From the NCBI GenBank assembly GCA_016748015.1, contig JAAOMT010000512.1:62001-126000 (forward strand): DNA of 64,000 bases. Reading direction: 5' to 3'. The notes beneath the pieces were generated by a model that was not told the DNA's origin, made no database searches, and saw only the letters and a program-made list of their open reading frames with translations. This document shows positions 6,301 to 64,000 of the stretch, piece by piece; position 1 is the stretch's first letter, and every line of letters starts with the position of its first letter. The DNA is from Geosiphon pyriformis uo1 (Eukaryota > Fungi > Glomeromycota). The position numbers were made by a program, and so were the translations under genes.

Positions 6301-9300
6301 CTAGCTATGCCCAACACTATTTAAGTCTCCTGATTACTCTAGAAGACACCCAACTCAATCATCAAGAAACTAACCAAAAGCCACTCATTAATAATATACT
6401 TCCAGCAATTATTATAAACAATGAATCACTAGCTATGATCTTTTTTTTGAACTCAAAGAACCAACAATAACTCTGTTATTCAGTGGAGCCATTCTGAACA
6501 CAAAACTCATTACCATAATATACACTAATGCCAAGATTAATAGTCAGTTCATCAAACTAATCTTAAACAGCAGTTTAGCAAACAGCATTATTATCAAACA
6601 ACTTATGAACCAATTAGGTCACCAAGTTGATTGTGCTGCTAGTGCCAAAATTATTATTACTGATGGAGCCATCAAGACTCCAATTGGCAAAATTAATGAC
6701 TTTCCAATCAAAGTCAATGACATCAATATACTGATTAAAGTTCTTGTTATAGAAGCCATTTAGTATCAAGCTCTGATTGATAATAACTGGTTGTCCAAAA
6801 CAAATGCTGTACTTAATTAGACCACTCAAAAATTGCAATTCAGCCAAAATAGTTAGCACACTTAAGTATAGTCATGTGTGATTATTTCAAACCAACCAAC
6901 ACCATTCAAGCCTCACTAATTAAATTAGAAAAAAAGAAAGAAAGACCTACTTGAAAAGTCTACCAAGTTTTGTGGATTGACAAAGACCACAATAACTTGC
7001 CACCAGTGTCTACATAAAAAGAAAAGGGAAAAAGGAAAGAAAAAGAAAAAGAAAAATACCAAGCAACAATTTCTACTTATATATCATACACTATTACCAC
7101 TCAATCACAGCCAAACTATTGTTGATCCAAGCTAATTTGCATTGATTGTGGCAAGAAATTGTTATCAATGGGCATATGCTGTGGTGACAACAAGGAGTGG
7201 CTGACAGCAACTAAGTATTACTGCCATCCATGTGTTTTCAAGCAATTTGGAAGACCAAAAAGACAAAAAAAATAGAACAACAAACCATGTCTTGCTTGTG
7301 GAAAAACTTTTCTAAATGAAAAAATGTGAAACAACATTTCTGGTCATGGAGGAATGTGTGACAAATCATGTCAATACATGATTCTGATTAGTAATTGGAT
7401 AAGAAAAAGAATGCCTATAGATATTATCTGAAAAAGAGCTGTAAAATAGTTGAATGTTTGTCTACATAACAATGACAAAATATGAAAAATAGCAATCACC
7501 AAAATTAAAAATACAACACCAAAAAAAATCAAAATAATAAAGAACAACTCACCAAAACCAAAAAAAATTATTTAAGTCCCAAATTCAGATATTATTCTCG
7601 ACATAATAGATCCTGAACAATTCTATAAACACTACCAAAAATTAGCACCCACTAGGAAAGAGCAAAAACAATATTTAAAGTAGTTAAATGCTTGACTTTG
7701 TCAATACTGTTTAATATCATGTGATTTTTAATATTGTAATAAGTGTGATTTCATTTACAATCTACCACCACACATAATCTACATGATTTCCAAAGAGGAA
7801 GAACCAATTAACAGCTGTGCTTCAAAATCAGAATTGAAATTTAATTCTGATTCAAACTCTGATGATAATAATAAAAACAATAATTCCAGCTCAGTCCAAA
7901 ATGACAACAATAACAACAATTTAAACTTCAATTATAACTCCAAACAATACATTGTGCTCTTTGATCTTTCCAAAGAGCAGAAACTAAAATGGTTTAGCAA
8001 TAATAATGAAAATATTATGTCAAAATACATGTATGATACTGATACAGAGTTTGATTTGAAATATTCAGGAAAAGATGCCATCAAATTAAAATCATATTTA
8101 TGTACATACATTAATCTAAAAGTAGTACTGAAAATTTTAACAATAACAATGATTCAATTAGCATCTAGACTTAGTTTAGTGAAAAAGAGAATTAACATCA
8201 GAAGAGGAATAATTGATGCAGGATATATGGAAAATATTATTGCAATGCTACAAAATGACTCAGAAAAAGAATATATTATTGAACCAAATAAAAAAATAGC
8301 ACAGGCAATATTTCTATCTCTTGTTAAAATAGCTCAGTTAGTATTAATAGGAAAAAGAGAAAAATTAGGGATAACAGCAAGAAAAATAAGTAGAATTGGA
8401 TCCATGGGTAGAATAAACATACTAATTAATATGGCAGAGAAAAAAGTTATTGACAAGAGAAAAATTATCTCCACTTATTAATTAATTTCCATTCTGCTGT
8501 ATAACCAGTACATATTAGCTATAGAAAAGAAAATAAAGGATCAAGCTCAAATTTTTAAGATAAAAACTCACAATTTGTGAATCAAGAAAAATTGGACTCA
8601 CCAATTTTTACATACCAGCCAAAAGCCTGAAACATATAAAAATTTCCATCCACAACACAACTAGAAACATTATTGAAATATCAAAAAAAAACACCATTGG
8701 ATATTTAAGCACTGAAGTTAAAAACCAACTACCAAACACCATTCCAGATTTTTCACAACTGTGTGAATATGTGGATATTACATCATAAACAATATATGAA
8801 TAAAAAAAATACTATTTGCTTTAACCAAAACAATTAGAACAAATGAACTTGAAAAACTTAGACCCATTCTAACAAATACAACTCAAAATTTTACTTAACA
8901 ATTTCACTAATATCTTTGCCAATAAAAATGAATTTAACCAAACTGATATTATCCAGCATCAGATCAAGACTGGAGACATAATGCCAATCAAACAAAAAAC
9001 ATACAGAGTACCACTAACCAGCCATAAGATTATTCAACAAGAAATCAATTAGATGTTAGATAACAGGTTAATTCAATCATCAATAAGTCCATAGTCATTA
9101 CCAGTAGTATTAGTTCATAAAAAAAATAAAAAAATCTGTTTTTGTGTGGATTACAGAAAACTCAACAGTATTACTCATAAAGACAGCTATCCAATTCTAT
9201 GTATTCAGGAATTATTCAATGCTTTTAGAGGAAAGAAATGGTTCTCAATACTGAATCTAGATAGTAGTTACTGGCAAATAGCCATAAATTTAGCTAACAA

Positions 9301-9561: not shown

Positions 9562-10534
9562 TGTTACCAATAGAATTTTAGCTATTAATTAGCATAAAAT
9601 TACTCTCATAATTCTTATTATTAATTAGCATATATTATTATTATTTCGATTATCACTTATTATTTAATCAAATTATCAAATATTATTACTCAATCAATAA
9701 TCTGATTTGTATCATAAAAATTAAGATGATCAAATTACACAATATCCTGAACCATTTAATATAGTCAAAATTTGTCGAAATTAATAAAAATTGGCCGAAA
9801 TAATTAATAGTTCAGTGAAATAACTTGTAGTTCACCAAAATATATCCTTAGTTTACCAAAATTAAAGCAAAGAGAAAAATACAAGTTCAAAGACTAGTAC
9901 TACAACAAGTTGTATAAAAAAAGAGCTTCTCTTTTCAAAAAATATATCTTCTTATAATATTTTACTATAGTATCTTATTTTAGATATCTTAATTAGAACA
10001 AATTATCTTTTATATATCTTAAATAAAAATTAAATATTTGAAAACCAAATTCTTCAAATTATTATACTTGAAATTCCTTCAAACACAACTAACATTTTGA
10101 AATTGATTAGCTACCAATTTCAGTAAACTGTTAGTGACTCCAGGTCTGGATAGAGAATGTTTTCTTTAATAAAATCCTATTTCTTTTACATTTCTTTTAT
10201 TTTTATTTATTTTTTTATTACAATCATTAGAGTAGTCTACAGACAAGATTCCTGTAGAAGAGTTAACTTTTACAGCAAAGTAACTACACATTTTTAGTGA
10301 GCTTCTAGATGAGCAATTCCTGGGAAAGAGTTGACATTTACTACAATGTAACTACATAAAGTAACTAACAAGAAATTGGCCATTCCACTTATAAGCCCAG
10401 CAGTTCAAATTATAGGAGATAATTTGAAGATAAAATTCAGTTATTGGAGGTTCAATTGCTTCCAGAAAACGTGAAATTAGCAACAGATAAATAGTAACAA
10501 CATTCAAAAAAAAGACCAAAAACCTCCAGTAACA
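9562..10534 (+). repeat. B2 5' LTR (973 bp)
   Basis: TGTTACCAATAG...CTCCAGTAACA followed by the PBS start TTTGGTGC. Confidence 0.94.
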
Positions 10535-10542
10535 TTTGGTGC

Positions 10543-11492
10543 TGTTACTGGAGGTTTTTGGTCTCTTTTCTTAAATGTTGTAACTGTCTGTTGGTTGCAA
10601 ATTCACGTTTTCTAGAAGTAGTTGAACTTCCAATAATTGAATTTCTCTTCAAATTATCTTCTATAATTTGAACTGCTGGGCTTATAAGTAGAATGGCCAA
10701 TTCCATGCCAGTTGCTTTGTGTAGTTATGTTGTAGTAAATGTCAACTCTTTCCCAGGAATTGCTTATCTAGAAGCTCACTAAAAATGTGTAGTTACTTTG
10801 CTGTAAAAGTTAACTCTTCTACAGGAATCTTGTCTGTAGACTACTCTAATGATTGTAATAAAAAAAAAAAAGAAAAATAAAAGAAATGTAAAAGAAATAG
10901 GATTTTATCAAGGGAAACGTTTTCTATTCAGGCCTGGAGTCACTAACAGTTTACTGAAATTTGTAGCTAATCAATTTCAAAACGTTAGTTGGGTTTTGAG
11001 GATTTTCCAAGTGCAATAATTAAAGAATTTGGTTTTTTGAATTTTTTGATATTTATTTCTTTTTGTGTGTGTAGAAATGGTTCTAAGTGATAACTCTAAA
11101 GTAAAATACATTTTCTTGAAAAGAAAAGCTCTTCTTTTATACAACTTGTTGTAGTACTAGTCTATAAACTTGCACTTTTTCTCTTTGCTCAAATTTTGGC
11201 AAACTAAAGATACATTTTAATGAACTACAAGTTATTTCGCTGAACTATTGATTAATTTGGATAAACTATTCATAATTTCGGCGAATTTTAGAATGTTACA
11301 AAGTTCAGGGTATTGTGTAATTTGATCATCTTACTTTCTGTTGTACTAATTGGATTATTAATTAATTCGTGATATGTGATAAATTGATTAAATAATAAGT
11401 GATAATTTGAAATGATATTAATATACTAATTAATTATAGGGATTATAAGGGTAATTTCATGCTAATTACTAACTAAAATTCTACTGGTAACA
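10543..11492 (-). repeat. B3 3' LTR (950 bp)
   Basis: Direct repeat of 19434-20423; preceded on the minus strand by the PPT at 11496-11505. Confidence 0.95.
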
Positions 11493-12179
11493 TAATCTCC
11501 TTCTCAAAACTGAGCTCTATCAAAGTCCAAGCACTATCTGTAATATTGAGATAGTGATCCAAAATAATTGAAGTAATCTGGTCTGAAAATTGTTGAAATT
11601 TCAGTTCTGTGAGTTTGCCAATATATTAGACTTTCATTGGTTGCAGTATTAGATTTTGTAGAACATTTTCACAAGTATTAAACAAATCATAGAGTCTAAA
11701 AGCTGCTCTAAGTTTGTAGTGAGTGTTTATTGATCCAGCTGCTGTTTTAATTCATTGTGGATTTGTTTTTGTATAGTTTCAGGAATGAGATTTGTTGCTT
11801 CAAGTTCCAGTTTTCGTTCATAAAGTGTCTTTCCAATGTGAAAGTATTTATAGATAGGGGTGTGTTTATTGTTCTGTTCATTGAGAAGTAGTAGAAGTTT
11901 TTGTTGCATTGTAGCATTTGGTGAAATATCAATAGGGGCAATTAAAAAATTTTCTTCCAGTACTTGCTTCAAAAGTCTTGGTAACCTATTTTCAGAGTGA
12001 CTTCTTGTTTTTTTTCTATAAGAGTAATAGTTCTGTGAATGATTTGCTACTGGGACTGTGATTTTTTTCTGAATGTAATTAATTTGACTTCCATTAATCA
12101 TTATAAATAAGTCAGAAAGTGTTTTCAAGGCTAACATTAACTTTTGGGATATTTGTTGAATATTTTGGGGAATAATCAT
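11473..12179 (-). pseudogene. B3 accessory ORF3 (~235 aa, unknown function), one frameshift near 11750; runs through the PPT into the LTR
   Basis: ORF 11727-12179 (MIIPQNIQQISQKL...YKYFHIGKTLYERK). The continuation HYKLRAAFRLYDLF...KEIMLPVEF* is recovered by comparison with B2 and B1. Confidence 0.8.
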
Positions 12180-12324
12180 GATAAAATTAACTAATTATGA
12201 AAAGAGAGAATAAAAAAAATTATTTTTGGATATGGAGTTTTTATTTGTTTTTGGGTTTGGGTGTTTTTTGTAATTTATTTACTATTTTTGTCTTTGTGTT
12301 TTTATTAGAAAATTAGTGTAAAAT

Positions 12325-13710
12325 TTAAGTGTTCAAGTTTGGTTGTTGTTCTATTATAATTATTGGTTTTAAATTTTAGAGAATATCTTTAGGATTAATT
12401 AAAGGGGCATGTGTACCAATTTGTGGAATTAATAGTTCAGGATTGTTTCTGGAATGATAGTATTTCAATCTGTCTTCATGTGCAACTTTTGTTAGTATTT
12501 TGTCATCAAGTCTTAACTTGTATAATCTATTGCCTAGAATTTCGTGAATATAAAATGGTTCATCCCATTTGTTTTCAAATTTCCCATTCCATTGTTTTTT
12601 AGTCTTAGTTCTGTGTAAAAGAACTTTATTTCTAACTTTAAATTCGTTGGTAATAGGTGGTAATTTGTTGTTATGTCTTTCTTTTTGTTGAGCTTGGGAA
12701 TGTTCAATATGAGTTGCTGCTATTCTTTTTTTTCCTTCTAGTGTACTAAGAAGAGTGTAGGCTCTTCTTTGGAGTGTTTTTTGAAAGTTTTCTTCATTGA
12801 TTGGTTGCACTAAGTATGTTTCCACTGTGAAATTAATTGGTAATGTTGCTGTTCTTTCATAAATAAGATCAAATAGTGTGTGTTTTATAGTATCTTGTTT
12901 TAGTATTCTGTATGCTAGTAATACTGATGGAATAAAGATATCCCATTTCTGCTCAAAGTCTGTTGAGACTTTGGCTAGAGATTTACACAATGTTCTGTTG
13001 AAATGTTCTATAAGTCCATTTGTTTGAAGGTAATAAGGTAATGATAGAGGTCTTTTGATATTGAACTGTTCACAAATTTCTTGTATCAAGTTGTTTACAA
13101 AATGTGTTCCTTGATCAGATAAGAGTTCAATTGGACATCTATGTCTACAGATAATGTCTTCATAGATGAAATTTGCTACTGATTTTGCATCTGCTCTTTG
13201 GATGGCTCTAGCTTCAGGCCATTTGGTAAGCTAATTTACTGCAACTGCAATATAATGATTTTTTTGGGTTGTGATAGGTAATGGTCCGACTAAATCAATT
13301 CCAACTCTGTCAAAAGGTTGTCCAACTTTGATTGGATTTAAAGGTTCTGTGGGGCAAGTTTCTCCTCTTTTTTAACAACTATCACAAGATTCTACATATT
13401 GTCAAATGTTTTTTTGCATGTGAGGCCAAAAATAATATTCAAGAGTTCTTTGAATTGTTTCATTTCTTCCCAAGTGTGCTGAAAAAGAATCTGTGTGCAT
13501 GTTGTATAGAATTGTTTTTTTTTCATTTTTTTGTACTAATCTGAGTGGTTGGTTTGAGTTTTTACGATTTTTGTAATAGATTTTGTTGTGGTGTATAAAA
13601 TATTGTTTGGATTGGTGTTGTAATCGATGTTTTTCACTTGGAGACTAATTTTCTGGCATGGTGAGAGTTTCCAAATAGTTTTTGATGTTGTTGTAGTTTT
13701 CTGGATCCAT
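12325..13710 (-). pseudogene. B3 integrase as a separate ORF, few stops
   Basis: Starts MDPENYNNIK. Contains PFDRVGIDLVGPL, LLSDQGTHF, QTNGLIEHFNRTL and a C-terminal GPY/F-like KWDEPF..YKL (ORF 12376-13089). Confidence 0.92.
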
Positions 13711-13777: not shown

Positions 13778-16700
13778 TTAATATTGTCTCATTCTTGAAA
13801 GGCTATTAACATTGGTGTGTAGTTTTCCTGGTTTGTAATGTACAATGTATTTGTAGTCTGCTAGGAAGTCATTCCATTGAGACTGTTTGGCACTTTGTTC
13901 AGTTTTCTTTTTATTAAGCCATTTGAGGCCAATATTGTTAGTTATTATGTCAAATTTTTTTCCATTCTTCAGGTATTGTTGAAAGTGTTTAAAAGCCCAG
14001 ATGACTGCAGCAGCTTTCAATTCAGTTAAGCCATATTTGAGTTCTGTTGACTTGAGTGTTCTACTGGCATAGACAATAACTTGTTCCTGGCCATTTTCAT
14101 CCAATTGTGATAAGATGGCACCAAATGCTATGTGTAAAGCATCAGTGGCTAATTGGAATTATTTGTTAAAGTCTGAGTAAGCAAGAACTGGGGCTGTTGT
14201 CAATTTTGTTTTGAGAGTTTCAAAAGCTTTTTGTTGTTCTTCAGTCTATTTGTATGGTATGTTTTTGTTGGTAAGATAATTAAGTGGTTTGGCAATTTCT
14301 AAGAATCCTTTTATGAATTTTTGATAGTAAGAGGCTAATTCTACAAATCCTCTTAGTTCTATAGTATTTCTGGGGGTTTGAAAGTTTTTGACAGCATTGA
14401 TTGTTCCTGGATTTGGTTTGACTCCATCTTTACTAACTATGTGTCCAAAAAAGATCAAGCTTGTTTTTCCAAAGTAACATTTCTCAATGTTTAATTTTAA
14501 TCCTGCTTTCCGTAATTGTTGAAAAACTTCTTGCAGGTGAATGAGATGGGCTTCAAAGCTTGGTGAGTATACATCAGTATTATCAAGATAGACAACTACT
14601 GATTGCCACAAGAGCCCTTCATATACAACATCTATGAGTCACTGAAATATTGCTGGTGCATTGCAAAGTCCAAAGGGCATAACATTGAACTCATAGTTTC
14701 CTTCTTGGATGGTAAATGCTGTTTTGGATCGGTCTTTTGAGTCCATTTTGACTTGTCAGTATCCACTTTCCAAGTCTAAAGTTGAGAAGAACTTGGCTTT
14801 TCCTAGAGCATCTAGCATGTCATCAATTCTTGGAAGAGAGTAGGCATCTCCAATTGTCACACTGTTCAATTGGCAATAGTCAACACAAAATCTGATTTTT
14901 CCATTTTTTTTTTGACAAAGACTACTGGTGAGGTCCAAGGACTTCTTGATAGTTGAATCAATCTGTTATTGAGCATTCTCTGGACTTCTTCTCTGATGAA
15001 TTGGTGGCTGGCAGGTGGTACTCAATAAGCTTGTTGACATTTTGGTAGAGCATCTCCTGTATAGATCTGATGTTGAACAATATCTATTTTTTCTAAGTCA
15101 TTGTTGTCTTTTGCAAATATATCTGCAAATTCAGCTATCAATTGTTTCAATTGTCTTTGTTGTTGAGGTTCTAAGGGACTCATGTTGATTTGAGAGAGTT
15201 TTTCTTCCAAAAAGTGGTAGTTTTCAGTAGTGGGAATGATATTTGGATTTGGAAGTAGAGTGTGCCTTACAATTTCGATAAAATTAGAAACAATTTGAGG
15301 GTTTTCATCTTGAAAAATATTGCTGTGTATGATTCCAATCTCTAGTTTGTTTAATAAGACAATAGAATAATTATTGGGATTGTAGAATGTAACTCAAAAT
15401 TTTTTCATTCTTTTGGGAATATAAACGTTTGGAATTGTGATTTCATGCTTCAAACAGATTTGTTTATTGGATTCAAAGATTTGTTGTGTAGTGATGAGTT
15501 TTGAGCAAGTGTAAATTTTGTGATGTTCTCCAAAAGGTGAAATGGTAATTGGCTGGAGAAGTTGAAGAATCTGGTAAGATTCATTTTGTGTATTAAAAGC
15601 TATGTTTACTGGAACTGTAAATCGTCCAGTTGAACCAAAACCTTGAGTTCCTCTTTTATTTTTTCCCAATTGTTCTCTGTTGTTTACTGATTGTAAACCC
15701 GAAATGTTGATTAAGGGTAAGTAAATTGCTTGAGCAATTTTTTCAGCATGTTCAATTTTGAATGGTTTGTCTGTTTTATTCTGTAACATGATGGTAATGT
15801 CTCCAGTGTATTCTGCATCTATAACTTCTTCTTTAATATTGATTTTTTTGCTTGCCAATGATGATCTGGAGGCAATTTGCACTATTGCTCCTAGTGGAAT
15901 TTCAAGAGCAATTTTGAGATTAATTTTTGTTAAGGACTTTGGTTGGAGAACCAAAATATCTTTTCCTAGGTATCTTAGGTTATATCCAGCATCAATTTTG
16001 TGTGCTTTTTCTGGTCTGATTCCTTGGCCATGGTTGTCAAAATATTTAAGTTGTAGAAGTGATTGCTTTTCAAGAAGATAGATGAGTGTGGTTGGTAGTT
16101 CTTCTTTTAGTTTAGATACTCCAAATTCGATTTCATTTTCATCATTCTCATCTGGCAGAGGAATGCTAAGAGCATAACATTCTAAACACTATTGGTCATC
16201 ACAAGGCATAACACATTTTTCACACAATTGAATGTTCATTTGCTTTAATCATTAAATTTGAGCTTCTTTGGTTGGATATGTGTGACTTGCAATTTGGTAG
16301 TAAGTTTTTACTTCATCTTTATAATCAAATCCAGTTAATTCCATGGTATACTCAATATATTCAGCTTCTTTCATTTGGTGGACATCTTTTTGGGTGGCTC
16401 TATTGATCAATGTCATTGCTAGGTCAAAAATTATTTCAGCATTATGAGGGTAGTGGTAAAGTTTATTGAGAGCACTGTTGTATGCTACATCAAATGGTGT
16501 TCTTCTTCTGACTTTTTCCGAAATTGATAGAGCATATTGACAGGTTTGATTACATACTCCTCTTCTCATTGCAACATCAATCCAGTTGCATTCTTCTGGT
16601 AGCATATCTCCACATGTAAGACAAGATGTGTTGTCCCATTTTCCACTTCTTTTTGGAGATCCAAATCGTTCTTTATGGCATGCTTTGCAAAAGTAATAGA

Positions 16701-19390
16701 TACGAGTTTCATATTCCTCTTCTGAAGAAATACATGCTCTCATTGATGAAAGCTTTTTTTTGCAATCTTTGCATTTGAGTGGAATATAGAATGGTTGTTT
16801 CTGTGGTTCTGGTGTAGAATATCTAACTTTCTTCCATTCTCTTGATTCTTCAAAAATCTTCTGTTCTGTTTCTTTAGCCCAATTGGATATTGATCCAAGA
16901 GCCATGTAGGTTTCAGTAAATGGCATTTCTTTCTCCTCTTCAAATTCAAATACTGGGACTTTTTCTGATTATTTGTTAAAGATACCACAAGTTGCAGGTA
17001 CTATGATATATTGTCCTTGGTATGAGATTTTAAGTTCTTGAGTTTCCCAGTTCAGGTTTGCATTGGCCTTGAGAAGCCAATCATTTCCGACTAGAGCTTG
17101 GTATTGGGGTGCATCCATAACAGGAACTTTAACTGGAATGGTGATTCTATCAATTGTAAAGGGGAAATTATTAATTTCTCCTACTGGAGTCTTCTTTATA
17201 CCATTAGCTGTGACAATAACTGTTTGAGCTGATCTGTCTACATTTTGTTTGAGTTGTTGCATCAGCTGGTAAGTAATAATACTTCCAGCTGATCCACTAT
17301 TTAAGATTAAGCAAATGGGTTTTCCTTCTACTGTAGCTTCTGTATACATAGCAGTAATTGCTTTCTGTTCATTGATTGCTGCATTACTAAGCAGAAATGG
17401 TGATTCATTTGCTTCAAATTCAAATGGAAATATATTTAACAGATTGGCATTTTGGACAATTTGAGCTGGTGGAATGGTGTGGTTGGAAGGGTTTAATCTT
17501 GGCACTGCAACTTCATCTTCAGAAAGTGCAGTTTGTTGAAAATCCGATTCCTCTGGTATTGTAAGATAATTGGTTGAGTATAATAGTAATTGGGTCTTTG
17601 CTGACCAGAATTTCGGGGAACCAACTGGTTATTTGAATTGATTCTGTTGTTGTTACTCTGCAATTGATTTTGGGGTGTGAATTAGTTATGTTGAACCAAT
17701 CTTCTTGCTGGTACTTGATATTGTTGAGTGGGTGGTGTCTGATATGGCTGAATTGGTAAAGGTTGCTGATATTGTTGCTGTATTGGTTGTAAAGCTGGTG
17801 AATAGTAACTGTTTTGATTTTGTGGTCTTGGTAAATAATAGGTTGGTGGTGGAGATTGGTAATAAGATTGTTGTGGTAAAGAGTAACGTTGATTACTCCT
17901 GTTTTGTTGGTCTCTTTGTAATTTCCTACAATCTCATTTCTAGTGTCCTGAAATTCCACAATAATGACAATTTTGAAGTTGGTTGTTGGATGGTGATCCA
18001 AAATTGTTTTGGTTGCATTGTTGTGGGGGTTGATATCTTTGTGGTTGTTGTTGGTTTGTGAAGTAGCTTTCAACCTTTTTTGTGAGTTGGTCTATCTTCT
18101 CTTCAGCTGCTGAGCTGGTTTCTCCAATTGCAAAGTTTACAAGCTTGGTGTGATTTGCTTCTTCTATTGTCATTTTATAGCTCTTTGCATGTCTAATAGT
18201 AGTTGCTAAGTCTGCTGAAGCATGTGAATGGACTTTCTTAATCAGTTTGTTTTTTAACCCTGCTATAAACTGATCCAGAATTTGAGCATCAGAATAGTAG
18301 TCATTGGTTTCTAATTGTCAGATTCGTCTAAGAAGTTTGTTAAATCTTTCAAGATAGGTCATAACAGTTTCAGATGTTTTTTGTTTGATATTGCAAAAGT
18401 GGTTTCTGAGAGTAATAAAGGTATTGTTGTTGGTGAATTGTTGTAGAAAAGCATCTTTGAATGCTTGCCAGTTTTCAAATAGTTCTTCTAAATTTTCAAA
18501 CCATTCTTCTGCTGTTCTTTGAAGAAAGTAGGAAATTGCTTTAAGCATTCTTGCTGCAATCCAACCATTTGCATCTTCTGCTTTTTGAACTTTGTCAAGC
18601 CATTTTTGAGGACTGGTATTATTGTCTTCACCAGTGAATTCTGGGATTTTTGCAATGTAAGCAGTTGCCATTTTTTCTTCGTTTTCTGTAATTTCTTCTG
18701 GTTTTGATTCAGTTTCTTCACTTTCCAAGCTTTCTGAATGATTACTTTTATTTTCCTGTAAGTAATCAATGATATTGGCACTTGTTGATATTGGTTCCTG
18801 CTGTTGAATAGGGTTTCTAGATGACTGAAAATCTTCTGGTCTGGAGAAGCAGTTAAGTGGTGAATTTGGTGTTTGTGGTTGAATAAGTAAAATTAGAAAT
18901 AGTGTAATAGAAAGTGGTAATTTGATATTGGTTCCTTGTTCAAATATTTGCAAGTGTTTGGCAGTTGTCTTTTGTAGTGTTGGAGTGTTTGGAGTGGTTT
19001 TTGAGTATTGCTTCAATCTTTGTTTGTCTTTGTTGCTTGTTTCTGTCTCTGATTTAAACTCAATAGAGTATTGAGACTGTATTGGGTATTTTTCTTCACA
19101 ATACTCAATAATGTTAAAATTAAGTTCTTAGAAGTAAGTAGCAAGTGTTTTACTGTTCAGGTCTTCTGTTTCTAATTGTGAATAGTGCACTAAATTATTG
19201 TAAAAGTTGCTTCTAACTTCTGAAATGTTGTAGTTTCTAAAAAGATAATTGTTGATGCAGTTTTTAATGTATTGGTATACTGATTTCTTAACAACTTCAA
19301 TTCCGTCTGGAATGTTGAATCTTTGCTTGCAGTAGGTGTAAATTGACTTGTAATACTCTAGAATTGCTGTGTCTGGTGTGGTCACTACTT
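13778..19390 (-). pseudogene. B3 gag-PR-Cys-rich domain-dUTPase-RT-RNaseH polyprotein gene, disrupted
   Basis: ORFs 18318-19016 and 17940-18173 (Gag, CHYCGISGH), 16969-17505 (protease LILNSGSA...LVGNDWL), 16252-16926 (Cys-rich), 15394-15954 (dUTPase, RGTQGFGSTG), 14246-14938 (RT), 13778-14104 (RH). Confidence 0.95.
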
Positions 19391-19433: not shown

Positions 19434-20423
19434 TGTTACTGGAGATTTTTGGTCTTTTTTCTTGAATGTTGTAACTGTCTGTTGGTTGCAAATTTACATT
19501 TTCTAGAAGTAGTTGAACCTCCAATAACTGAATTTCTCTTCAAATTATCTCCTATAATTTGAACTATTAGGCTTATAAGTGGAATGGCCAATTCCGTGCC
19601 AGTTGCTTTGTGTAGTTATGTTGTAGTAAACATCAACTCTTTCCCAAAAATTGCTTGTCTGGAAGCTTACTAAAAATGTGTAGTTACTTTGCTGTGAAAG
19701 TCAACTCTTCTACAGGAATCTCATCTGTAGGCTACTCTAATGATTGTAATAAGAAAAGAAAAGAAAAATAAAAGAAATGTAAAAAAAATAGGATTTTATC
19801 AAGGAAAACGTTTTCTATCCAGGCCTGGAGTCACTAACAGTTTACTGAAATTTGTAGCTAATCAATTTCAAAACGTTAGTTGGGTTTTAAGGATTTTCCA
19901 AGTGCAATAATTAAAGAATTTGGTTTTTCAAATTATTTGATATTTATTTCTTTTTGTGTATATAGAAATAGTTCTAAGTGATAACTCTAAAGTAAGATAT
20001 ATTTTCTTGAAGAAAAAAGCTTTTTTTTTATACAATTTGTTGTAGTACTAGTCTATAAACTTGCACTTTTTCTCTTTGCTCAAATTTTGGCAAACTAAAG
20101 ATATATTTTGATAAACTACAAGTTATTTCACTGAACTATTGATTAATTTGGATGAACTATTCATAATTTCGGCAAATTTCTATAAATTTCGGCAAATTTC
20201 TGTAAATTTTGGCGAATTTTAGAATGTTACAAAGTTCAGGGTATTGTGTAATTTGATCATCTTACTTTCTGTTGTACTAATTGGATTATTAATTGAATCA
20301 TGATATGTAATAAATTGATTAAATAATAAGTGATAATTTGAAATGATATTAATATACTAATTAATTATAAAGATTATAAGAGTAATTTCATGCTAATTAC
20401 TAGCTAAAATTCTACTGGTAACA
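19434..20423 (-). repeat. B3 5' LTR (990 bp)
   Basis: TGTTAC...TAACA termini; 40 bp longer than the 3' LTR because of two extra ~20-bp repeat units at ~20165-20220. Confidence 0.95.
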
Positions 20424-26436: not shown

Positions 26437-27096
26437 TTAATATTAAGCTCTGTCAAAATCTAATTCTTTTAATTCTTCCTCTTGAATTATTTTTTGAACT
26501 TCTTTTTTGAGTATTACTTGTGTTATTTAAATTTGTAATTTTTCAAATTGGGCATTGGTCATTTTTCCTAATTGATTACTCGTAACTGTGTCCATTGCTG
26601 TGTTGAATAAGATTTTTGGTCAGTCTTGAAATTCCATATATAGCCAGTAAATGGCTCGAGCTTGTGTGGTTAGATTGTTTTTTCTCACAAATTGTTTCAG
26701 TTGTCTCAGTATTGTTGTGTCGAATAATCGTTTTGTTTTGTTGGTGTACAAATTCTGGATATTTACGTGTTGTCCCAAGTGGAAATAGCAATAGTTTTTC
26801 AGAAATTGTTGTGTTCACCAAGTTCAATTTTCTCTAGTAAGTTTTTGGTGTAGTTCGACTATTTGTTGTTCTTTTATGGCCAATTTTATCTTGGTCATAA
26901 TTTTGTTAACAACATTTTCAAGTCTTTTCTGTACTTTGTATTGTAGTATCTTTGCCGTATTTTTGTAACAAATGGTTTGTTGATTGATTGTAATTTCTAT
27001 TTTCTGGTGTTGAATTAATTGAAAAATTTGTTGAGCTAGTGAATAGATATTGTCCATAATTTCCATTTTTCTGATCTTTTCTGTCGTATTAACTAT
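26437..27096 (-). pseudogene. A2 accessory ORF3 (~219 aa, unknown function)
   Basis: ORF 26824-27066 (MEIMDNIYSLAQQIFQ) plus in-frame continuation NYCYFHLGQ..QARAIY..NQLGKMTNAQF. Homologous to A1 and A3. Confidence 0.8.
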
Positions 27097-28568: not shown

Positions 28569-31500
28569 TTAGATTTGTTTTATTCGTGACAAACTATTAA
28601 CATTTCCATTGTTTTTTCTTTTCTTATAGTGTATAGTATAAGTATATCATGAGAGTGCCATTTTCTATTTGGATTGGTAGTCATCATCACATTCTTGCTT
28701 TTGAAGTGATGTTAATCTTTTATGATCTATGTATATATCAAATTTTTAGCTCAAGTATTCGTTCCACTTCATAACTGCCCAATAGATTGCTAAGTGTTCT
28801 TGTTCTGGTGTTCCATAGTTCTTTTCAGCTGGTGTTAGACTTTGGCTGGTATATGCTACTGGATGTTCTCTGCCGTCTGGTTCTCTTTGAAATAGTACTG
28901 CTCCCAATGCTTGGCTGGATGCATCGGTGGTAATGATGAATAGTTTGCTGTGATCTGGATAGATCAGTACTGGAGCTTGGATGAGCTTTCTTTTTAGAAT
29001 ATCAAAAGCTTTTTGTTGACTTTTTGTCTATTTATATTTTGTATTTTTGTTTTACAATTGGTTAAGTGGCTGTGCTTTTTTGGATAAGTTCTTGATAAAA
29101 CATCAATAGTAGCTGGTGAATCCCAAGAATGATTTCAGTTCTGTCATATTAGTCAGCACTGGAAAGTTCTTTACTATCTCTATTTTCTCTGGATCCGTTT
29201 TGATGCTGTCTTTGCTGACTATGTGTCCCAAGAATTTTAGTTCTGTCTTGTCAAAAAAGCACTTTGTTGCATTTAACTTTAGTCCTGCTCTTCTTAGTCT
29301 TTCGAACACTTGTTGAAGATGATGAAGATGATCATCAAATGTTTTTGAGAATACATTGGTGTCATCCAAGTATACAACTACTGATTTCCACAATAAGCCA
29401 GTATAAACGATTTTCATTAGCTGTTGGAAAGTGGCTGGAGCATTGGTTAAGCCAAATGGCATAACTTCAAACTCAAAGTTTCCCTCTCTTGTGGTGAATG
29501 GTGTTTTTTTTTTGTCGGCTGGATCCATGGCTACTTGCCAGTAACCACTATCTAAGTCTAATGTTGAGAACCATTTGTTTCCACCAAAAGCATCGAATAG
29601 TTCTTGTATCTGTGGAGTTGGATAGCTGTTTTCATGAGTTATACTATTTAGTTTCCTGTTGTCCACACAAAATCAGATCTTTCTATTCTTCTTCTGGACA
29701 AGTACTACTGATGATGACCATAGGCTTATTGATAGCTGAATTAACCTATTGTCAAGCATTTGGTTAATCTCTTGACAGATGATTCTATGGCTGGCTAGTG
29801 GTACTCTGTATGCTTGCTGTTTGATTGGCATTACATCTCCAATCTTGATTTGATGTTGGATGATATCAGTTCTGCCAAATTCATTTTCACTGGCAAAGAT
29901 GTCATTGAAATTATTGAGTAATATCTTGAGCTGCATATGTTGTAGTGGATCTAGATTTCTCATGTTTATTTGTTCTAATTGTTCTGGTTGGAGCAAATAA
30001 CATTCATTTCGTCCATAGATTGTTTGTGATGTAATGTCAACATATCCACAAAGTTGTGGAAAGTCTGGAATGGGGTTTGGTGGTTGATCCTCTATTTCAG
30101 TGTTTAAGTATCCAATGGTGGTTCCGGCTGGTATTACTATAACATTTTCTGTGTTGTTGTAGATGGGAATTTTGATGTGACTATAATCTTTGACTGATAT
30201 GTGGAAATTGATGAGTCTAACCTCTCCTGATTCGCAAAGTGTTGGTTCTGCTTCAAAAATCTGATTTTGTTCTTTTTCCTTCCTTTCTATTGCTAGCATA
30301 TACTGGCTATATGGTGGAATGGAAATAGCTTGACCGGTTGAGATAATTTCTCCTTGGCCAACAATCTTTTCCTCTGCCATATTAACTGGTACATCTATTC
30401 TACCCATTGATCCAAATTCTTGTATTTCTCTTGTTGTTATCCCTAATTCCTCCTTTGTTCTCACTAACACTAAGCTAGCTACTTTGACTAGTGGCAGGAA
30501 TATTGCCTGTGCTATCTTTTCATTTGGCTCAATGGTATAAGCCTTTTCTGAGTCATTTTATAGCATGGCACTGATATTTCCTGTATATTCTGCATCCACT
30601 ATTCCCCCTCTAATGTTAATCCTTTTTTTTGCTAAGCTACTTCTAGATGCTAGTAGAACCATAGTTGTTGTTGGGATCTCTAAAGCTATTCTCAGATCAA
30701 TGCATACTCTCGCGTTTGGTTCCAATTTAATGGCATTTTTTTCTGGATATCTTAGATCAAATCCAGCATCAGTATCATGCACATGTTCTGGCATAATACC
30801 TTCGCCATTGTCACTATACCATTTCAACTCCTGTTCTTTGGAGAGATCTGGTAGGACAATGTATTGTTCATAGTTAGGATTAGAGTTTGCATCGTTGACA
30901 TTTTTGTTGCCACATTGTGTGGAACTGGAACTGGTGTTTTCATCATCATTGTTGTCAGAGTTTGAATTGGGATTGTAAACTAATTCCGATTCCGATGTAC
31001 AGCTGTTGATTGGTTTCTCTTCTTCAGGGATTGTGTAGATCATACATGGTGGTGAATTGTAAATGAGGTCACATGGAATTAAACAGTGGTTACATAACCT
31101 GGTGTTTATTTTTTCTAAGCATTGCTCCTGTTCCTCCCTTGTGGGTGCTAATTCCTGGTAATGTTCATGGAATTGCTCCAGATCTAGAAGATTTATGACT
31201 GGTTCTGGGTCCCAGTCAAGTTCTATGGGCTCTGGAGGATTGTTCTTGATTTTTCTGATCTCTTTGGGTGTTGTTTCTTTTATTTTGGTGATTGTTATTC
31301 TCCAAATTTTATTGTCGTCATGTGGACAACTGTCCAGTCACTGCATGGCTCTTCTCCAGGCTGCTTTTATTAGGGTTTCTTTCCTTACTCAGTCACTTAT
31401 TAGAATCATGTATTGACATGACATATCACATGTTCTTCCATGTCTTGGAATGTCGTTCCACATCCCTTCATCTAGCAGGGTCTCCCCACAAGCAAAACAA

Positions 31501-37727: not shown

Positions 37728-38431
37728 ATGATTATTCCTTGAAATATTTAACAAATATTCCAAAAATTAATGTTAGCCTTAAAAACACTTCTTGACTTAT
37801 CCATAATGATTAATGGAAGTCAAATTAATTACACACAAAAAGAAACCACAACACCAGTAGTAAACAATTTCCAGAATTATCACTCTTATAGAAAAACAAA
37901 AGATTACTCTGAAAATTAATTACCAGAACTTTTAAAACAAGCACTAAAAAAAAATCTTTTATTTGCTCCTATTAACATTTCACCAAATGCCACAATTCAA
38001 CAAAAACTTTTACAATTTTTAATAAACAAAACAATAAACATACTCTTATACATAAATATTTTTATATTGAAAAAACACTCTATAAACGAAAACTGGAACT
38101 TGCAGCAACCAACATCACCTCTGAAGCTATACAAAAACAAATTCACAATGAATTCAAGACAGCAGCTGGACCAACAAATATCCACTACAAACTTAGAACA
38201 GCATTTAGACTCTATGATTTATTCAACACTTGTGAAAACATCTTACAAAATTCAATACTTCATCCAATGAAGATTTAATATATTGAAAAGCTCACAAAAC
38301 TGAAATTTCAACAATTTTCAGACCAAATCACTTCAATTATTTTGGACCACTATCTTGACATCACAGATAGTGCTTGAACTTTGACAGAGCTCAGTCTTGA
38401 GGAGAAGATTATGTTATCAATAGAATTTTAG
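37728..38431 (+). pseudogene. B2 accessory ORF3
   Basis: ATGATTATTCCT start; colinear with B3 11473-12179. Confidence 0.8.
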
Positions 38432-41362: not shown

Positions 41363-42034
41363 ATGATATACATGACAAAAAAACCAAAAAAAATGGAAAT
41401 ACCAGACCATATCTATATCTTACCCCAACAATTATTTCAGACTGTAAACTAATAACAATTGGACATGAAAATTGTTGTCAACCACCAAAAAATCTGCTAT
41501 TAAAACACCAAACAGAAAAAAAAAACAAAGAATATACTATATCAATAACCACAAGACCAAACAAAAAACTGGTCAGATAAAATAGTAGAAAAAGTAAAAA
41601 GCACTTTTGGGAAAATACTCATTATGGTTTTAACTGAAGAACTTACAAAAAAAAATTGGAATCAGTAGATGAAACAACTTCCAATACTATACTGCTATTA
41701 TCAATTAAGACAAAAGTTGGATATTTAAAAGTTATATCTTGATAAAACCAAGAAAATATTCAATTAAGAAATAATATAGAATATTGAAGACATTATTGGA
41801 AAGAAAACAAATTTGACACTACACATTAGAACAATCTATTGACTACACACAATCTTTCAAAATTATGCAAAAATATTGCTACACTCCAATATGGAGACAA
41901 TAACCATCAACCAATAGGAAAGAATGAACAACTCGCAAATCAAAAATATAAGAAACAGAGTTGAACAAACAATACTAAAAAGAAAAATTATAAAACTAAT
42001 TCAAAATGAAGATTTCAACAGAGCTTAATATTAA
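41363..42034 (+). pseudogene. A1 accessory ORF3
   Basis: Diverged homolog of A2/A3 ORF3 (KMEIPDHIYILPQQLFQ, EELTKKNWN.., YYCYYQL); ends just before the PPT. Confidence 0.72.
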
Positions 42035-47306: not shown

Positions 47307-48013
47307 ATAATTATTCCTCGAAATATTCAACAAATATCCCAAAAATTAATGTTAGCTTTAAAAACACTTTTTAACCTATTCATAACAATTAATAAAAGTC
47401 AAATTAATTACACTCAAAAAGAAACCACAACACCAGTAGTAAATAATTTTCAGAATTATTACTCTTATAGAAAAAAACAAAAGGTTACTTTGGAAATCAA
47501 TTACTTAAACTTTTAAAACAAGCCCTAAAAGAAAACATTTTATTTGCCCCTATTAATATTCTATCAAATACCACAATTTAATAAAAACTTCTACTATTTT
47601 TTAATGAACAAAACAATAAACATACTTTTATTTATAGATATTTTCATATTGAAAAAACACTATATGAACAAAAACTGGAGCTTAAAGCAACAAACATTAC
47701 TTCTGAAGCTATACAAAAACAAATTCACAATGAATTCAAGACAGCAGCTAAATCAACAAACATTTACCACAAATTTAGAGCAGCATTTAGACTCTATAAT
47801 TTATTCAACACTTGTAAAAATGTCTTACAAAATTCAATACTTTATTTAATGAAGATTCAATATATTGAAAAGCTTACAGAACTGAAATTTCAACAATTTT
47901 CAGACCAGATTACTTTAATTATTTTGGATCACTATCTTGATATCACAGATTGTGTTTGGACTTTGATAAAGCTTAGTCTTAAAAAAAAAATTATGTTATC
48001 AATAGAATTTTAG
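47307..48013 (+). pseudogene. B1 accessory ORF3
   Basis: Colinear with B2/B3 ORF3; start codon decayed to ATA. Confidence 0.75.
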
Positions 48014-48963: not shown

Positions 48964-49110
48964 GTATATAGTGCTGTTTTAACTGGCTTGAGTGGCTGGT
49001 TATATATAAAAAAAGCATAAATAATACTTAATTTAGAGTCTTGTTTGAGTTTATGTACTTAAATAATAATTGGACTGCATTTATTAAACTTTTAATAATA
49101 AAAAATATAT
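48964..49110 (+). mobile_element. 3' UTR/tail of a LINE, host of B1
   Basis: Similar to the LINE 3' end at ~62470-62610 (TGAGTGGCTGGT...AAAAA.GCATAA...CATTTATTAAA..TTAATAATAAAAA). Confidence 0.65.
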
Positions 49111-51290
49111 AATTACAATATATTTAATATTAATAATATTAAAAAAAAATTAAAATTTTTGATAATATTTAATATTTTTTAACACAATAAAAAATTATAT
49201 AAAATAATAATTATTTTTATTACAATTTTTTTAAAAATTAATAAATTGTTTAACAAAAAAAATAAAATTATTAACTATAATATTTATTAAAATTATTTTT
49301 AAAAACTTAATTATAATATTATAAAATTATGTAAAAAAAATATTTAGTTAATTAGTTTTTGTTTAAATTAAAATTAAAACCAAAAAATAATAGTAACAAT
49401 AAAAAATAAAAAAATTTAACAATTTGTTTAAATAATACACAATATTTCAAAAATAATAATTAAATATTAAAGCAAAAAACTAGTAATAAATTATTATTTT
49501 TAATTATATTATTTCTAAAATTGCTTATTTAAACTTAAATATTTAATTTATTACTTGTTTGTTTTTAAAATTAGAAGGTTTTACATTATTAAAAAGTTTA
49601 ATTTTATAACAAAAATTAATTTACACTAATATTAACTTTAATTAATTATTAAAAAAAACCAAATTAATTATTTGAAAAACCAAAAAATACTAATATTAAT
49701 TTTTAAAAATGATTTAATAAAATTGTAAAAACAGTAATATTAATGAATAAAATAAGTTTAAATTTTAAAATTGTTTTTTTGTTTTTTTTAAACAAATAGT
49801 AAACTGTTTTTTTAAAAATTAAATAATATTTAAAAGTAATTTTTTAAAATATTTAATATAAATGTTCATAATTTTTTATTTTTTTTAAAAAATATTAAAA
49901 AAAAATATAAGCTCTTTATTAAAATGTTTTTTAAAAGTTTTTTTCTGTAATTAATTGAATTAAATAGGTTTTTACTAAGAAATTAATTAGTAATATTATT
50001 GTTTTTTCATATATTAGATTAAATAATATATGTTTTATTGTATTTTATATATTAAATAAAAACATTTTATTTTTGTTTAAAATCAATTAAAATTTTAACT
50101 AATAATTTACAAAGTATTTTGTTAAAATATTTTACAAATTTATTTGTTTATAAATAATAAAGTAAAGATAAAAGTTTTTTAATGTTAAATTATTTATAAA
50201 ATTTTTATATTAAGTTGTTTATAAAGTGTATTTTTTGATTAAATAAAAATTTAATTAGATATTTGTGTCTATAAATAATGTTTTTATAAATAAAATTATT
50301 ATTAATTTTGTATTTACTTTTTAAATGACTTTTATTTTAAATTATTATTATAAATAATTAATTAAATTGTTATTTTATAAGTTAATACTTTTAGTTTTAA
50401 TTATAATTTAAAGATTTTGATTTATTTAAAAGTATTTAATAATAAAGTTTTTTGTATAATAAACAAAAATTTAATAATAATAATAAATAATACTAAGTAT
50501 TTAACGTTTTTAATATAATAACTAATTTATTTTAGTATTTTTTATTTTTTGGTAAACAATCCTAATTTTTTAATTATGTTTTATGCTATTTTTTGTATTT
50601 TTTACCAATTAATTTGACATGATAATTTTAGTACTTTTTTTTTATCAATTAATAAATAAATATTAGTATTTTGTTAATAATAATAATTAAAAATTATTGT
50701 TTTAATATTGTTAATAATATTATATTAATGCTATCTGTATTAATTTAAGAAGTAATTAAATTTTAAAAAAATAAGTATAAATTAATAAAAGTTGAATATT
50801 AAATAATTTAAATAATAAATTTATTTTAAATAAATATTTTACTTAAAGTACTAAATTTTAATTGTTAATATTATTTAATAAAAAATAAATTGAACTTGTT
50901 TGTTTTTTTTTATAGCTATTACTATTTGTATTAAATTCAAGTAATTAATATTAACTATTATATTATTTTTCGAATTTTGAATTAATTTATTAAAAAATTA
51001 TACATTAATATTTTTTTAAAAATTTACTTATTATATTTAAACAATTTTTAAACAGCAATTATATTAGCCAAAAACTTTAATATATTATAATTAAAAGTAT
51101 AAAAATTATTAATTAAATTAAATAAAATTTTATAAAATCTAAAATTAATTATTATTATTAAAACCAATATGTTATAAAACTAAAAAAAGTATATAAATAC
51201 TATTAAAATATGACAAAATGATCACAAAATAAAAATTACAAATAAAATTTACTTAATTGCTTAATAATTATTTTAAATATTAAAAAATAA
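49110..51290. other. Extremely AT-rich eroded DNA, no ORFs
   Basis: Almost devoid of G/C; part of it is an inverted homolog of 63400-63930. Confidence 0.7.
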
Positions 51291-51393
51291 ATAGATGAAA
51301 CAACATGGTGTTGTAAATTTGATTAGGGACAAAAAACTTAATGTTTCTTGGTATAAAATTAAAAAACATTTGAATGTTTTGGGTAATAAGCAT

Positions 51394-52281: not shown

Positions 52282-52940
52282 TTAATATTGAGCTCCATCA
52301 AAATTCAACTCATTTAATTCCCCCTCTTAAAGTATTTTCTGGATTTCGTTTTTGAGAATTACTTGTGTTATTTGGGTTTATAATTCTTTAAATTGAGCAT
52401 TGGTGATCTTTTCTAATTGATTACTGGTAACCATATCCATTGCTTTGCTACACAATATTTCTGGTCTATTCTGAAATGCTATGTGTATTTGGTATATGGC
52501 TCGGGCCTGTGTGGCTAAGTTGTTCTTTCTCACAAAATGTTCTAATTGTTTTAGTATTCTTTTGTTGAATAATTGCTTTGTTTTATTTGTATATAGATTC
52601 TGGATATTTATGTGTTGCTCTAAGTAAAAGTAACAATAATTTCTTGAAAATTGTTGTATCCACCAATTCCAAGTTTCTTTAGTCAACTCTTGATATAGTG
52701 CCTCTTTTGTTGACTCTTTTATTGCTAATTTTACTTTTACAATGATTTTGTTTACTGTATTTTCAGTTTTTTTTTTGTTCTGAGTTGTAATGTCTTTCTA
52801 GTATCTTGATATCGAATGGTTTGTTGATTGATTGTAATCTCCATTTCCTGGTGTTGGATTAATTGAAAGAGTTGTTGTGCTAGTGAGTGAATATTGTCTG
52901 TAATTTCCATTTTTCTGATATTTTCTATTGCGTCTATCAT
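52282..52940 (-). pseudogene. A3 accessory ORF3
   Basis: ORFs 52752-52940 and 52378-52686 separated by one frameshift. Confidence 0.82.
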
Positions 52941-61551: not shown

Positions 61552-62619
61552 GCATGCTAATATGTTGGCCAATTCAGCTACAAGTTCGAATGTGGTGCTT
61601 TCTGTTTTGGTTAAAGAAATGTTTGTTAAGACTGGTAGAGTGGCAGTCTCTAATAATGTTTAGCATTTTGCTTGGGATGTTTTTAGGACTGTGAATCATG
61701 CTTGCTGGGAGGTTGGACCTGGTTCTGCTGTTATTGACAAAAATATGATTAGTAATGTGAATTGGGTTTATACTGCTTCAGTCTGACACTTGAACTTACA
61801 CATAGTAACTGGTTTTACCAGCAAGTCTACTGCTGATCTGTGCTTGTATTTTTTGAAAGCTCTGTATTGTCACCTGCCAGTTGCTGTGTAGAAGTGCTTG
61901 TATAACAGAGATTATCCGAATGTTTTGTGTCTTTATTGTGGAGAGGTGGAGAGCTCTAATCACTCCTTTGTGTGTGCATTTGACTCTGAAGTCTGTAAGA
62001 ATCTACTTGTCTCTCATCTGGCTAAGTGGTATGCTGTATTTGGTTTGGGTTTCTTTTTGTCTTAGATTTCACAAGTGCTTTCTTTGTGTACATCTGATGA
62101 TGTATTATACACTATTTTGAACAAAGGCTTTTTGTTTAGAAATTGGTAATTAGAGGCTGTTTCTGTTTTAGATGATGCAAAATTTGCAAAAAGGGTTATT
62201 ATTGACTTTGTTTGGGGTTTTTGTACTACTTATCATGTTAACATATGATTAGTTAGAGCCAAATATAAAGTCTTTATGGAGAAAGGTGGTTTAGTTTCTT
62301 ATGATGATACTGTTTTTCTTGTAACTTGAGGTCTGTCATCTTTGCTCTTGACTGGAATAGTTAGGTTGTTTGGAGTTGCTGAGGTTCTTGGCATTTGTTT
62401 TGGTTTTTGTAAACCATGCTGTTTTTTTTCTGGTGTTGATAATGTAGTGTCTGTTATAATAGATTTGTAATATTGCTCTGATCAGTTTGAGTGGCTGGTC
62501 ATGTGTAAAAAATGCATAATTTGTGTCTAGTTTAGATCACTTAGTTTGATGTATTGTGTTAGATAACATTTGGGCCTCATTTATTAAATGTTAATAATAA
62601 AAAATAAAAAATAAAAAAT

Positions 62620-64000
62620 TGAACATAAAAATAACTCAAAAAATAATAATAATTTAAATAACTTTATAAAATAAATTATAATATAATTAAATAATTATAT
62701 AAAAAAATTATTAAAGTTTTTTAATTTAAAAAATTAATTAAAAATGGCTAAAAAAGTTAGAAAAAACAATTTCTAATAACATATTATTTTTATTACTTAA
62801 GACAACAATTAAATATCCAAAAAATATTTAAAAAAATAATAATACAATAAATAAAACATATTATTAGAAAAAACAACTTAATAATTTACTTAAAAATAAT
62901 ATACTAAATATATTTAATATTTTACAAATACAATAAAATATTATTACATTTAATTATAAAAATATTAACAATAAACCAACTGAAAAAAATAATTAATTTA
63001 TAATTTAAAAAACTGAAAACAGAAAATTTTAATATTATAATAAAAAAAAGTACTTAAATTTATTTATTTAAAAATCTAATAAATTTTGTTAAAACTTAAT
63101 ATTAAAAAAAATTTATTATTACTTATAAAATAAAACAAAAAAATAATAATAAATAAAAACATAATATATTTAACTAATAATATAGTATAAATTATTTAAG
63201 TAAATAATATTAACAATTTCAAGAATATTAACAAAAATACTAAAAAATTTAGCAATAATTTAAGAAAAATTTAAAAATTACTAAAAATTCCAGGTATTTT
63301 TTTTTATAAAAATTTATGTATTTATAATAATAACTGTAAAAACAAAAAAAAACAAACAATTTTAATTCAACTTTTATTAAGTAATTTTAATAGTTAACAA
63401 TCTAATATTTAAAATAAATACTTATTTAAATTAATTTTATTATTTAAATTATTTAATATTTTATATTTATAAATTTATATTTATCTTGTTAAAATTTCAA
63501 GTTAATACTAATAGTATTAATACAATATTATTAACAATATTAAAACAAATACTCTTAATTATTATTATTAATAAAATATTAATTTCTATTTTTATTATTT
63601 TTAATTTTTTAAGTTTTGTTTTTTGTTTATTAATTGGTTAAAAAAAAGTACTAAAATTATAATATCAAAAATTATCTAATAAAAAATACAAAAAATAATA
63701 TAAAAATAATCAAAAAACTAAAATTTTTTATTAAAAAGATAAAAAACATTAGAATAAACTAATTACTATATTAAAAAAATTAATTAAATATTATTTACTA
63801 TTATTATTAAATTTTTGTTTATTATACAAAAAACTCAATTATAAAAATTTTTAAATATTCCAAAACTTTCAGATTATAATTAAAATTAAAAAGACTAACT
63901 TATAGAATAATATACTAATTCATAATTTATAATAACATAAAACTGGTTTAATTTTTTACTTAATTTGTTTTAGTTATAAATTTAATATTAATACAATATT
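62620..64000. other. Extremely AT-rich eroded DNA
   Basis: No ORFs; contains an inverted homolog of ~50350-50850. Confidence 0.7.

Follow-up and report, generated by a model that had tools for sequence, protein, structure and literature searches.

Which gene lies between the integrase and the 3′ long terminal repeat (LTR), in the position of env, in retrotransposons of the fungus Geosiphon pyriformis? The question is raised by a 64,000-nt stretch of strain uo1 (contig JAAOMT010000512.1, positions 62,001 to 126,000; hereafter the window), in which a sequence-only reading had proposed that two element families, A and B, share a conserved accessory open reading frame (ORF3) unrelated to envelope (Env) proteins. 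A homologous gene of 210–240 codons was found between integrase and 3′ LTR in all six window elements that retain this end. We conclude that ORF3 is a new protein family within the known class of non-Env accessory ORFs.

The sequence-only reading was right about a common region in six copies, and wrong in treating it as an open frame: each copy carries 1–8 premature stops, with a frameshift as well in B1, B2, B3 and A2. The ORF3 of B1 (11473..12179, minus strand) spans 235 codons, with a frameshift near codon 145, a premature stop at codon 185 and its last 20 nt inside the 3′ LTR; read in a single frame, this interval yields only ~145 homologous residues. The B2 copy (37728..38431, plus strand) has five stops and one frameshift near codon 101, and the B3 copy (47307..48013, plus strand) has a mutated start codon, two stops and one frameshift near codon 60. 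A single frame with five stops is left in A1 (26437..27096, minus strand), and two stops with one frameshift near codon 49 in A2 (52282..52940, minus strand). The remaining copy (41363..42034, plus strand; single frame, eight stops) had been taken for a third A element; at 38% identity to A, its sequence places it in a separate family, C. The motifs quoted for B are present in B1, spread over two frames, and those quoted for A merge the sequences of A1 and A2. Pol is likewise broken in the same elements, and every window copy of ORF3 is a dead pseudogene. The window also holds a seventh relic, heavily eroded towards A+T, at 62617..63063 (plus strand; E 6e-16), followed by a stretch resembling an LTR start (63095-63166; 79% to the C LTR start). 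Two stretches of ~16% GC (48980-51390 and 62480-64000) hold retroelement relics far more eroded than their neighbours, with traces of integrase (49907-50297), gag (50917-51078) and ORF3 left in them.

Selection on ORF3 can still be read from these copies. Pairwise ratios of nonsynonymous to synonymous change (dN/dS) for ORF3 were 0.22, 0.28 and 0.36 among the B copies and 0.17, 0.14 and 0.17 among A1, A2 and C, against 0.43, 0.52 and 0.64 (B) and 0.38, 0.30 and 0.38 (A1/A2/C) for integrase in the same pairs. Stops were excluded from these estimates, as were codons whose local identity to the reference was below 30% (138–140 of ~204 codons were kept in pairs with C), a filter that may favour conserved parts. 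Since transitions dominate, the null model took the base changes seen in each pair and scattered them randomly over sites carrying an identical base. Amino-acid changes fell below this mutation-matched null in all six, mutually non-independent, pairs (z -3.3, -2.6, -1.9, -4.1, -4.1 and -4.0), and z was negative in 12 of 12 half-gene tests. The four indels that separate the ORF3s of A1/A2 from that of C (6, 18, 3 and 15 nt) all keep the frame. ORF3 is under purifying selection, as the sequence-only reading had supposed: dN/dS spans 0.14–0.36 and is in no pair near 1. The gene was almost certainly functional; it was kept by selection and is not a one-off captured gene, in keeping with a non-Env additional ORF.

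Judged by sequence comparison, the ORF3s of A and B are homologous beyond chance, and on this point the earlier proposal of a gene common to both families holds: blastp aligned the proteins at 26% over 99 aa (E 5e-8), and hhalign aligned their profiles significantly over 184 columns (probability 78.5%, E 1.7e-5). Database searches returned 109 matches for B and 92 for A, all hypothetical proteins of G. pyriformis (best 83–87% identity). Of the 109 B-search matches, 33 appear full length from their size and end motifs (e.g., P0002, 235 aa), and P0111 (209 aa) is a full-length A-type ORF3. An ORF3 profile found 113 matches among 1.84 billion representatives; names were looked up for 10 divergent ones, of which eight are Geosiphon proteins of further families and two are metagenome proteins (P0236 and P0240). 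A broader profile matched 60 of 2600 candidates, 58 of them from Geosiphon and two others, in a search that requires shared 5-residue words and spans 51–427 aa, and that distant or fused relatives may escape. Every named homologue is a Geosiphon pyriformis protein. Many Geosiphon gene models (P0217, P0238, P0246 and others) join pieces of ORF3 to integrase, gag or unrelated sequence, apparently as artefacts of gene prediction over nested elements.

Metagenome contigs encode an ORF3 relative in two of 592 pattern matches, L001 and L002. Contig L001 has the order RT-RNase H-integrase (RT, reverse transcriptase), a ~310-nt spacer, an intact ORF3 of 230 aa and a junction between polypurine tract (PPT) and LTR that equals that of B2 at 29 of 30 bases. 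On L002, the integrase end is followed by an extra ORF of 128 aa and then by ORF3. This extra sense ORF (L002:425-808), which matched neither Pfam nor the ORF3 profile, gives some relatives two accessory genes. By transversion distance, the integrases of A1, A2 and C form a group (0.01–0.035) apart from B (0.16–0.18), and that of L001 is slightly nearer to B (0.16–0.17) than to A/C (0.19–0.20). A tree of 18 ORF3 proteins joins P0240 with B, although the tool flags possible long-branch attraction. ORF3 and integrase give the same grouping of elements, which fits vertical inheritance of ORF3 with the element across the whole lineage.

Could ORF3 be an Env-like or other membrane protein, or a passenger frame with no function? 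Its position and the broken state of all window copies would allow it. In nine database relatives, a simple hydropathy scan (highest 19-residue Kyte-Doolittle mean; not SignalP) gave maxima of 0.27–1.33 and no transmembrane segment in 9/9, furin-type RxKR/RxRR motifs were found in 0/9, and each protein has 0–2 Cys with no cysteine pattern. On all these counts, ORF3 is judged not to be Env-like, in agreement with the sequence-only reading. Selection in 6/6 pairs and the intact ORF3 of L001 also speak against a passenger, and pol is equally broken in the same copies. An envelope or passenger reading is largely refuted and must be regarded as very improbable.

AlphaFold (AF2; relative P0236 folded with a 24-sequence alignment) predicted a largely helical protein (mean pLDDT 77.8, pTM 0.63; pLDDT 88–95 over residues 81–170), and the earlier guess of a probably helical protein is matched by a helical core with pLDDT of about 90. 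The predicted architecture comprises an N-terminal helix-hairpin module (residues 11–42), a flexible basic linker with P-Y-x-R-x-x-K, a helical core (~85–205) and an acidic tail. In the model, helix 11–24 and hairpin 29–42 precede the low-confidence linker and helix 60–72, and the core is made of helices 88–96, 105–122, 129–144 and 149–163, short helices, and a long helix at 188–223. Y107, N148, F163, L170 and I198 are invariant in nine family representatives. A conserved G-x-T/N-N turn (N148 in 9/9) is followed by variable residues 149–153, which begin the next helix, and then by conserved L159, Y160 and F163. A basic patch lies at residues ~35–70, and the last 35 residues carry a net charge of -4 to -7 in 7/9 proteins.

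The window that holds the carriers of ORF3 is made up of degraded LTR retrotransposons densely nested in one another. Pfam recognised Retrotrans_gag, aspartyl protease (PR), dUTPase, RT and an integrase core with a Tf2-1-like SH3 region. The order is gag-PR-dUTPase-RT-INT, with RNase H between RT and the integrase (INT), which comes last. Because of this domain set and order, the carriers are assigned to Ty3/gypsy; they are dUTPase-bearing Ty3/gypsy LTR retrotransposons, and their terminal structures fit as well as the domain order. B1, A1 and A2 retain both LTRs (TG...CA), a TGGTGC-type primer binding site and a PPT, with 4-bp target duplications that are perfect in B1 and A2 and have a single mismatch in A1. 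The dUTPase between protease and RT was located at 15394-16188 (minus), 30558-31337 (minus), 55532-56656 (minus) and 7732-8481 (plus). Families B and A also have a Cys-rich insert of ~240 aa in the protease/dUTPase interval of pol (16252-16968 and 56657-57406, both minus strand), for which no credible Pfam family was found. The 3′ LTR of B1 (10543..11492, minus strand; TG...CA; target duplication GCAC) is 94% identical to its 5′ LTR (19434-20423). A B-type solo LTR (9562-10546, plus strand) splits the RT of a C-like element and stands back to back with this 3′ LTR, forming a 2-kb inverted repeat. A decayed fragment at 61552-62480 with a CxxC...H motif on the plus strand has a putative resemblance to the zinc-binding end of a non-LTR retroelement.

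The integrase of B1 (12376..13449, minus strand) has the rve core and the Tf2-1-like SH3 region, and the 284-aa C-terminal frame that was scanned has no chromodomain match. One might therefore ask whether ORF3 is a separate integration-targeting or particle-associated factor that substitutes for the chromodomain, given its place after integrase in 6/6 elements and the dense mutual nesting. Nesting is expected anyway where LTR elements are given as 41.2% of the Geosiphon genome (PMC11952901), the family and fold searches gave no reader-domain match, and ORF3 evolves far faster than integrase, the partner that it would require. We consider a targeting role distinctly unlikely.

LTR pairs are 91–94% identical, and 199 of 202 LTR–LTR differences are transitions; together with a CpG observed/expected ratio of 0.17, this is what deamination of methylcytosine should produce. 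In Rhizophagus, a related fungus, CG methylation and small RNAs are described as acting on transposons (bioRxiv 10.1101/2021.03.30.436303). ORF3 and the LTR both outpace pol: between A1 and A2, transversions are mostly <=1% in pol, 5–8% in ORF3 and 2–17% in the LTR, and between A and C the integrases differ by ~3% transversions and the ORF3s are 38% identical. Fast divergence under purifying selection, in a window with so strong a deamination signature, could mean that ORF3 antagonises a host defence protein (an RNAi, methylation or restriction factor) by protein–protein contact, with no nucleic-acid binding. Deeply diverged families with different variable residues coexist in one host, which fits element-specific targets better, and Pfam and Foldseek searches showed no similarity to known suppressors; a defence antagonist is thus an unlikely explanation.

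We tentatively favour, as quite possible, a nuclear regulator that binds the DNA of its own LTR through a helix-turn-helix-like core and sustains transcription despite host methylation. This proposal is suggested by the anatomy, with its basic linker, its acidic tail and a core of three helices in which the turn precedes family-specific residues, by the joint divergence of ORF3 and LTR, and by the heavy deamination that the host imposes on these elements. Expression of ORF3 would rely on a transcript of its own, made by splicing or from an internal promoter. The basic linker would act as a nuclear signal or as a grip on nucleic acid, helices 129–144 and 149–163 would form the helix-turn-helix, the family-specific residues 149–153 would read family-specific LTR sequence, and the acidic tail would recruit host factors. 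LTR binding would then keep the element transcribed in spite of methylation. In a bolder form, unlikely in our estimation, ORF3 would be a sequence-specific anti-silencing transactivator of a new helical DNA-binding family, the recognition residues of which co-evolve with each LTR; several gypsy families would escape CpG methylation in parallel, helping to explain the 41% LTR cover.

Several observations weigh against an LTR-binding regulator. The variable residues at the helix start may simply be solvent-exposed, the fast co-divergence of ORF3 and LTR also follows from relaxed constraint or 3′-end recombination, no conserved binding motif was identified in the LTRs, and relatives such as P0236, P0240 and P0299 are acidic overall (pI 5.2–5.9). 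No structure in PDB or BFVD reached E 0.001 in Foldseek searches, nor was a helix-turn-helix conspicuous in the results. The best two named Atlas matches are RNA-binding proteins, a closterovirus coat protein (0.93) and a phage translation repressor (0.91), and the tool cautions that a first family of this kind is probably wrong. DUF1016_N (YhcG N-terminal domain, PF17761), which shares Y..IG and R..Y..F at similar spacing over ~56 residues, was rejected as a family: it reached E 0.04–0.12 in 3 of 24 ORF3 members at 12.9–14.6 bits, far below the cut-off of 32.8 bits, and hhalign against an 11-sequence alignment gave 0.5% and 0.8%. A custom ORF3/DUF1016_N profile alignment did score higher (31) than every one of 150 column shuffles (17.5 ± 3.2), a weak result, as shuffled columns lose their helical periodicity and the family had been chosen as a top match among 24,736.

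Sequence searches of Pfam, PHROGs, NCBIfam and PDB likewise gave no credible family for ORF3. DUF3102 and DUF6192 resemble ParB-type helix-turn-helix domains. Further Atlas matches, weak leads in favour of the LTR-binding proposal, are to small helical bacterial families like DUF1016_N (DUF6192 0.90, DUF3102 0.87, HTH_3 0.87); the Atlas matches share only 127–143 of 256 features. ORF3 may be a regulator, a targeting factor or an anti-silencing factor, as the sequence-only reading had suggested; no family or fold result assigns it a function.

The ends of the gene bear on how it is expressed. In B1, the LTR starts at 11492 and the ORF3 stop codon ends at 11473, exactly 20 nt into the LTR, as had been read from the sequence, and the frame runs through the PPT (11496..11505, minus strand). 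Only B-branch elements cross into the LTR; the ORF3 frames of A and C stop just before the PPT. Just upstream of the B start lies a T-rich tract ending in AG (12180..12225, minus strand, in B1), with 60–64% T in 3/3 B copies, whereas no 45 nt of two scanned pol stretches exceed 47%. It is a possible splice acceptor or internal promoter element. No such tract was found before the ORF3 of A1, A2 or C (T 18–27%), and in A and C the gene starts ~25 nt past the integrase stop; the presence of the tract in B but not in A/C suggests that the expression route may differ between families. Directly after the primer site, the A and C elements have a common TGTAAG/GTATAATT-like text with a putative resemblance to a splice donor (34787 and 60673, minus strand; 3298, plus strand), which B lacks.

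A Rev- or CERV-like factor would instead bind genomic RNA and export, protect or package the unspliced transcript. Ty3/gypsy elements offer a precedent in CERV of Cer1, which is made from a spliced mRNA and described as required for genomic-RNA export (PMC10309623). The acceptor-like tract in all three B copies, the basic linker and the RNA binders that top the named Atlas matches point the same way; the lack of that tract in A1, A2 and C, and the low feature overlap of the Atlas matches, point the other, and CERV is reported to have 517 aa and a Cys-rich region (PMC10309623), compared with 0–2 Cys in ORF3. Such an RNA-binding role is conceivable, if rather doubtful. The probability left over by the LTR-binding proposal and the four alternatives belongs to an explanation that we have not foreseen.

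By analogy of position or logic only, ORF3 recalls three other genes: foamy virus Tas/Bel1, a DNA-binding transactivator encoded beside the 3′ LTR; lentiviral Nef, the frame of which crosses the PPT into U3; and VANC of Arabidopsis VANDAL transposons, a fast-evolving, element-specific anti-silencing protein. Known counterparts include the dUTPase-bearing Ty3/gypsy elements Juno, Vesta and TelKA of bdelloid rotifers, which are also described as having a sense ORF after pol and before the 3′ LTR, in some cases of 210–230 aa (PMC5408684). The bdelloid ORF3s are given as GDSL esterases, DEDDy exonucleases, and coiled-coil or transmembrane proteins that are family-specific (PMC5408684), whereas that of Geosiphon matches none of these and is lineage-wide. 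CERV of the C. elegans element Cer1, likewise an orphan, takes the env position of a Ty3/gypsy element without being an Env protein, and as a nuclear regulator acting for its own element it offers an analogy to the proposed role of ORF3; it differs, as described, in its 517 aa, several spliced exons, Cys-rich composition and demonstrated RNA export (PMC10309623). TRP28 of the plant element Retand is another ORF that is conserved throughout a lineage and placed between pol and 3′ LTR, and it has been proposed to be a DNA-binding regulator of its element (PMC11963269). The plant additional ORFs are reported as antisense and with Pfam PF04195 (PMC11963269), while the Geosiphon ORF3 is sense, fungal and without a Pfam family. 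The literature search, which did not extend to repeat libraries or the Geosiphon genome papers, so that a prior mention is possible, gave no description of the ORF3 family or of such a gene in Glomeromycota.

LTR elements of rotifers, nematodes and plants thus already provide examples of non-Env third ORFs. The Geosiphon ORF3 is old, lineage-wide and fast-evolving, and its intact natural copies and confident model make its function directly testable. Some 200 Geosiphon “hypothetical proteins” (109 + 92 matches), judged without genomic context, are likely transposon genes or fragments and not host genes. Should it prove to activate its LTR specifically or to counter silencing, ORF3 would give fungi an equivalent of the regulatory genes of retroviruses, and it would be a candidate for what drove the LTR expansion in Archaeosporales.
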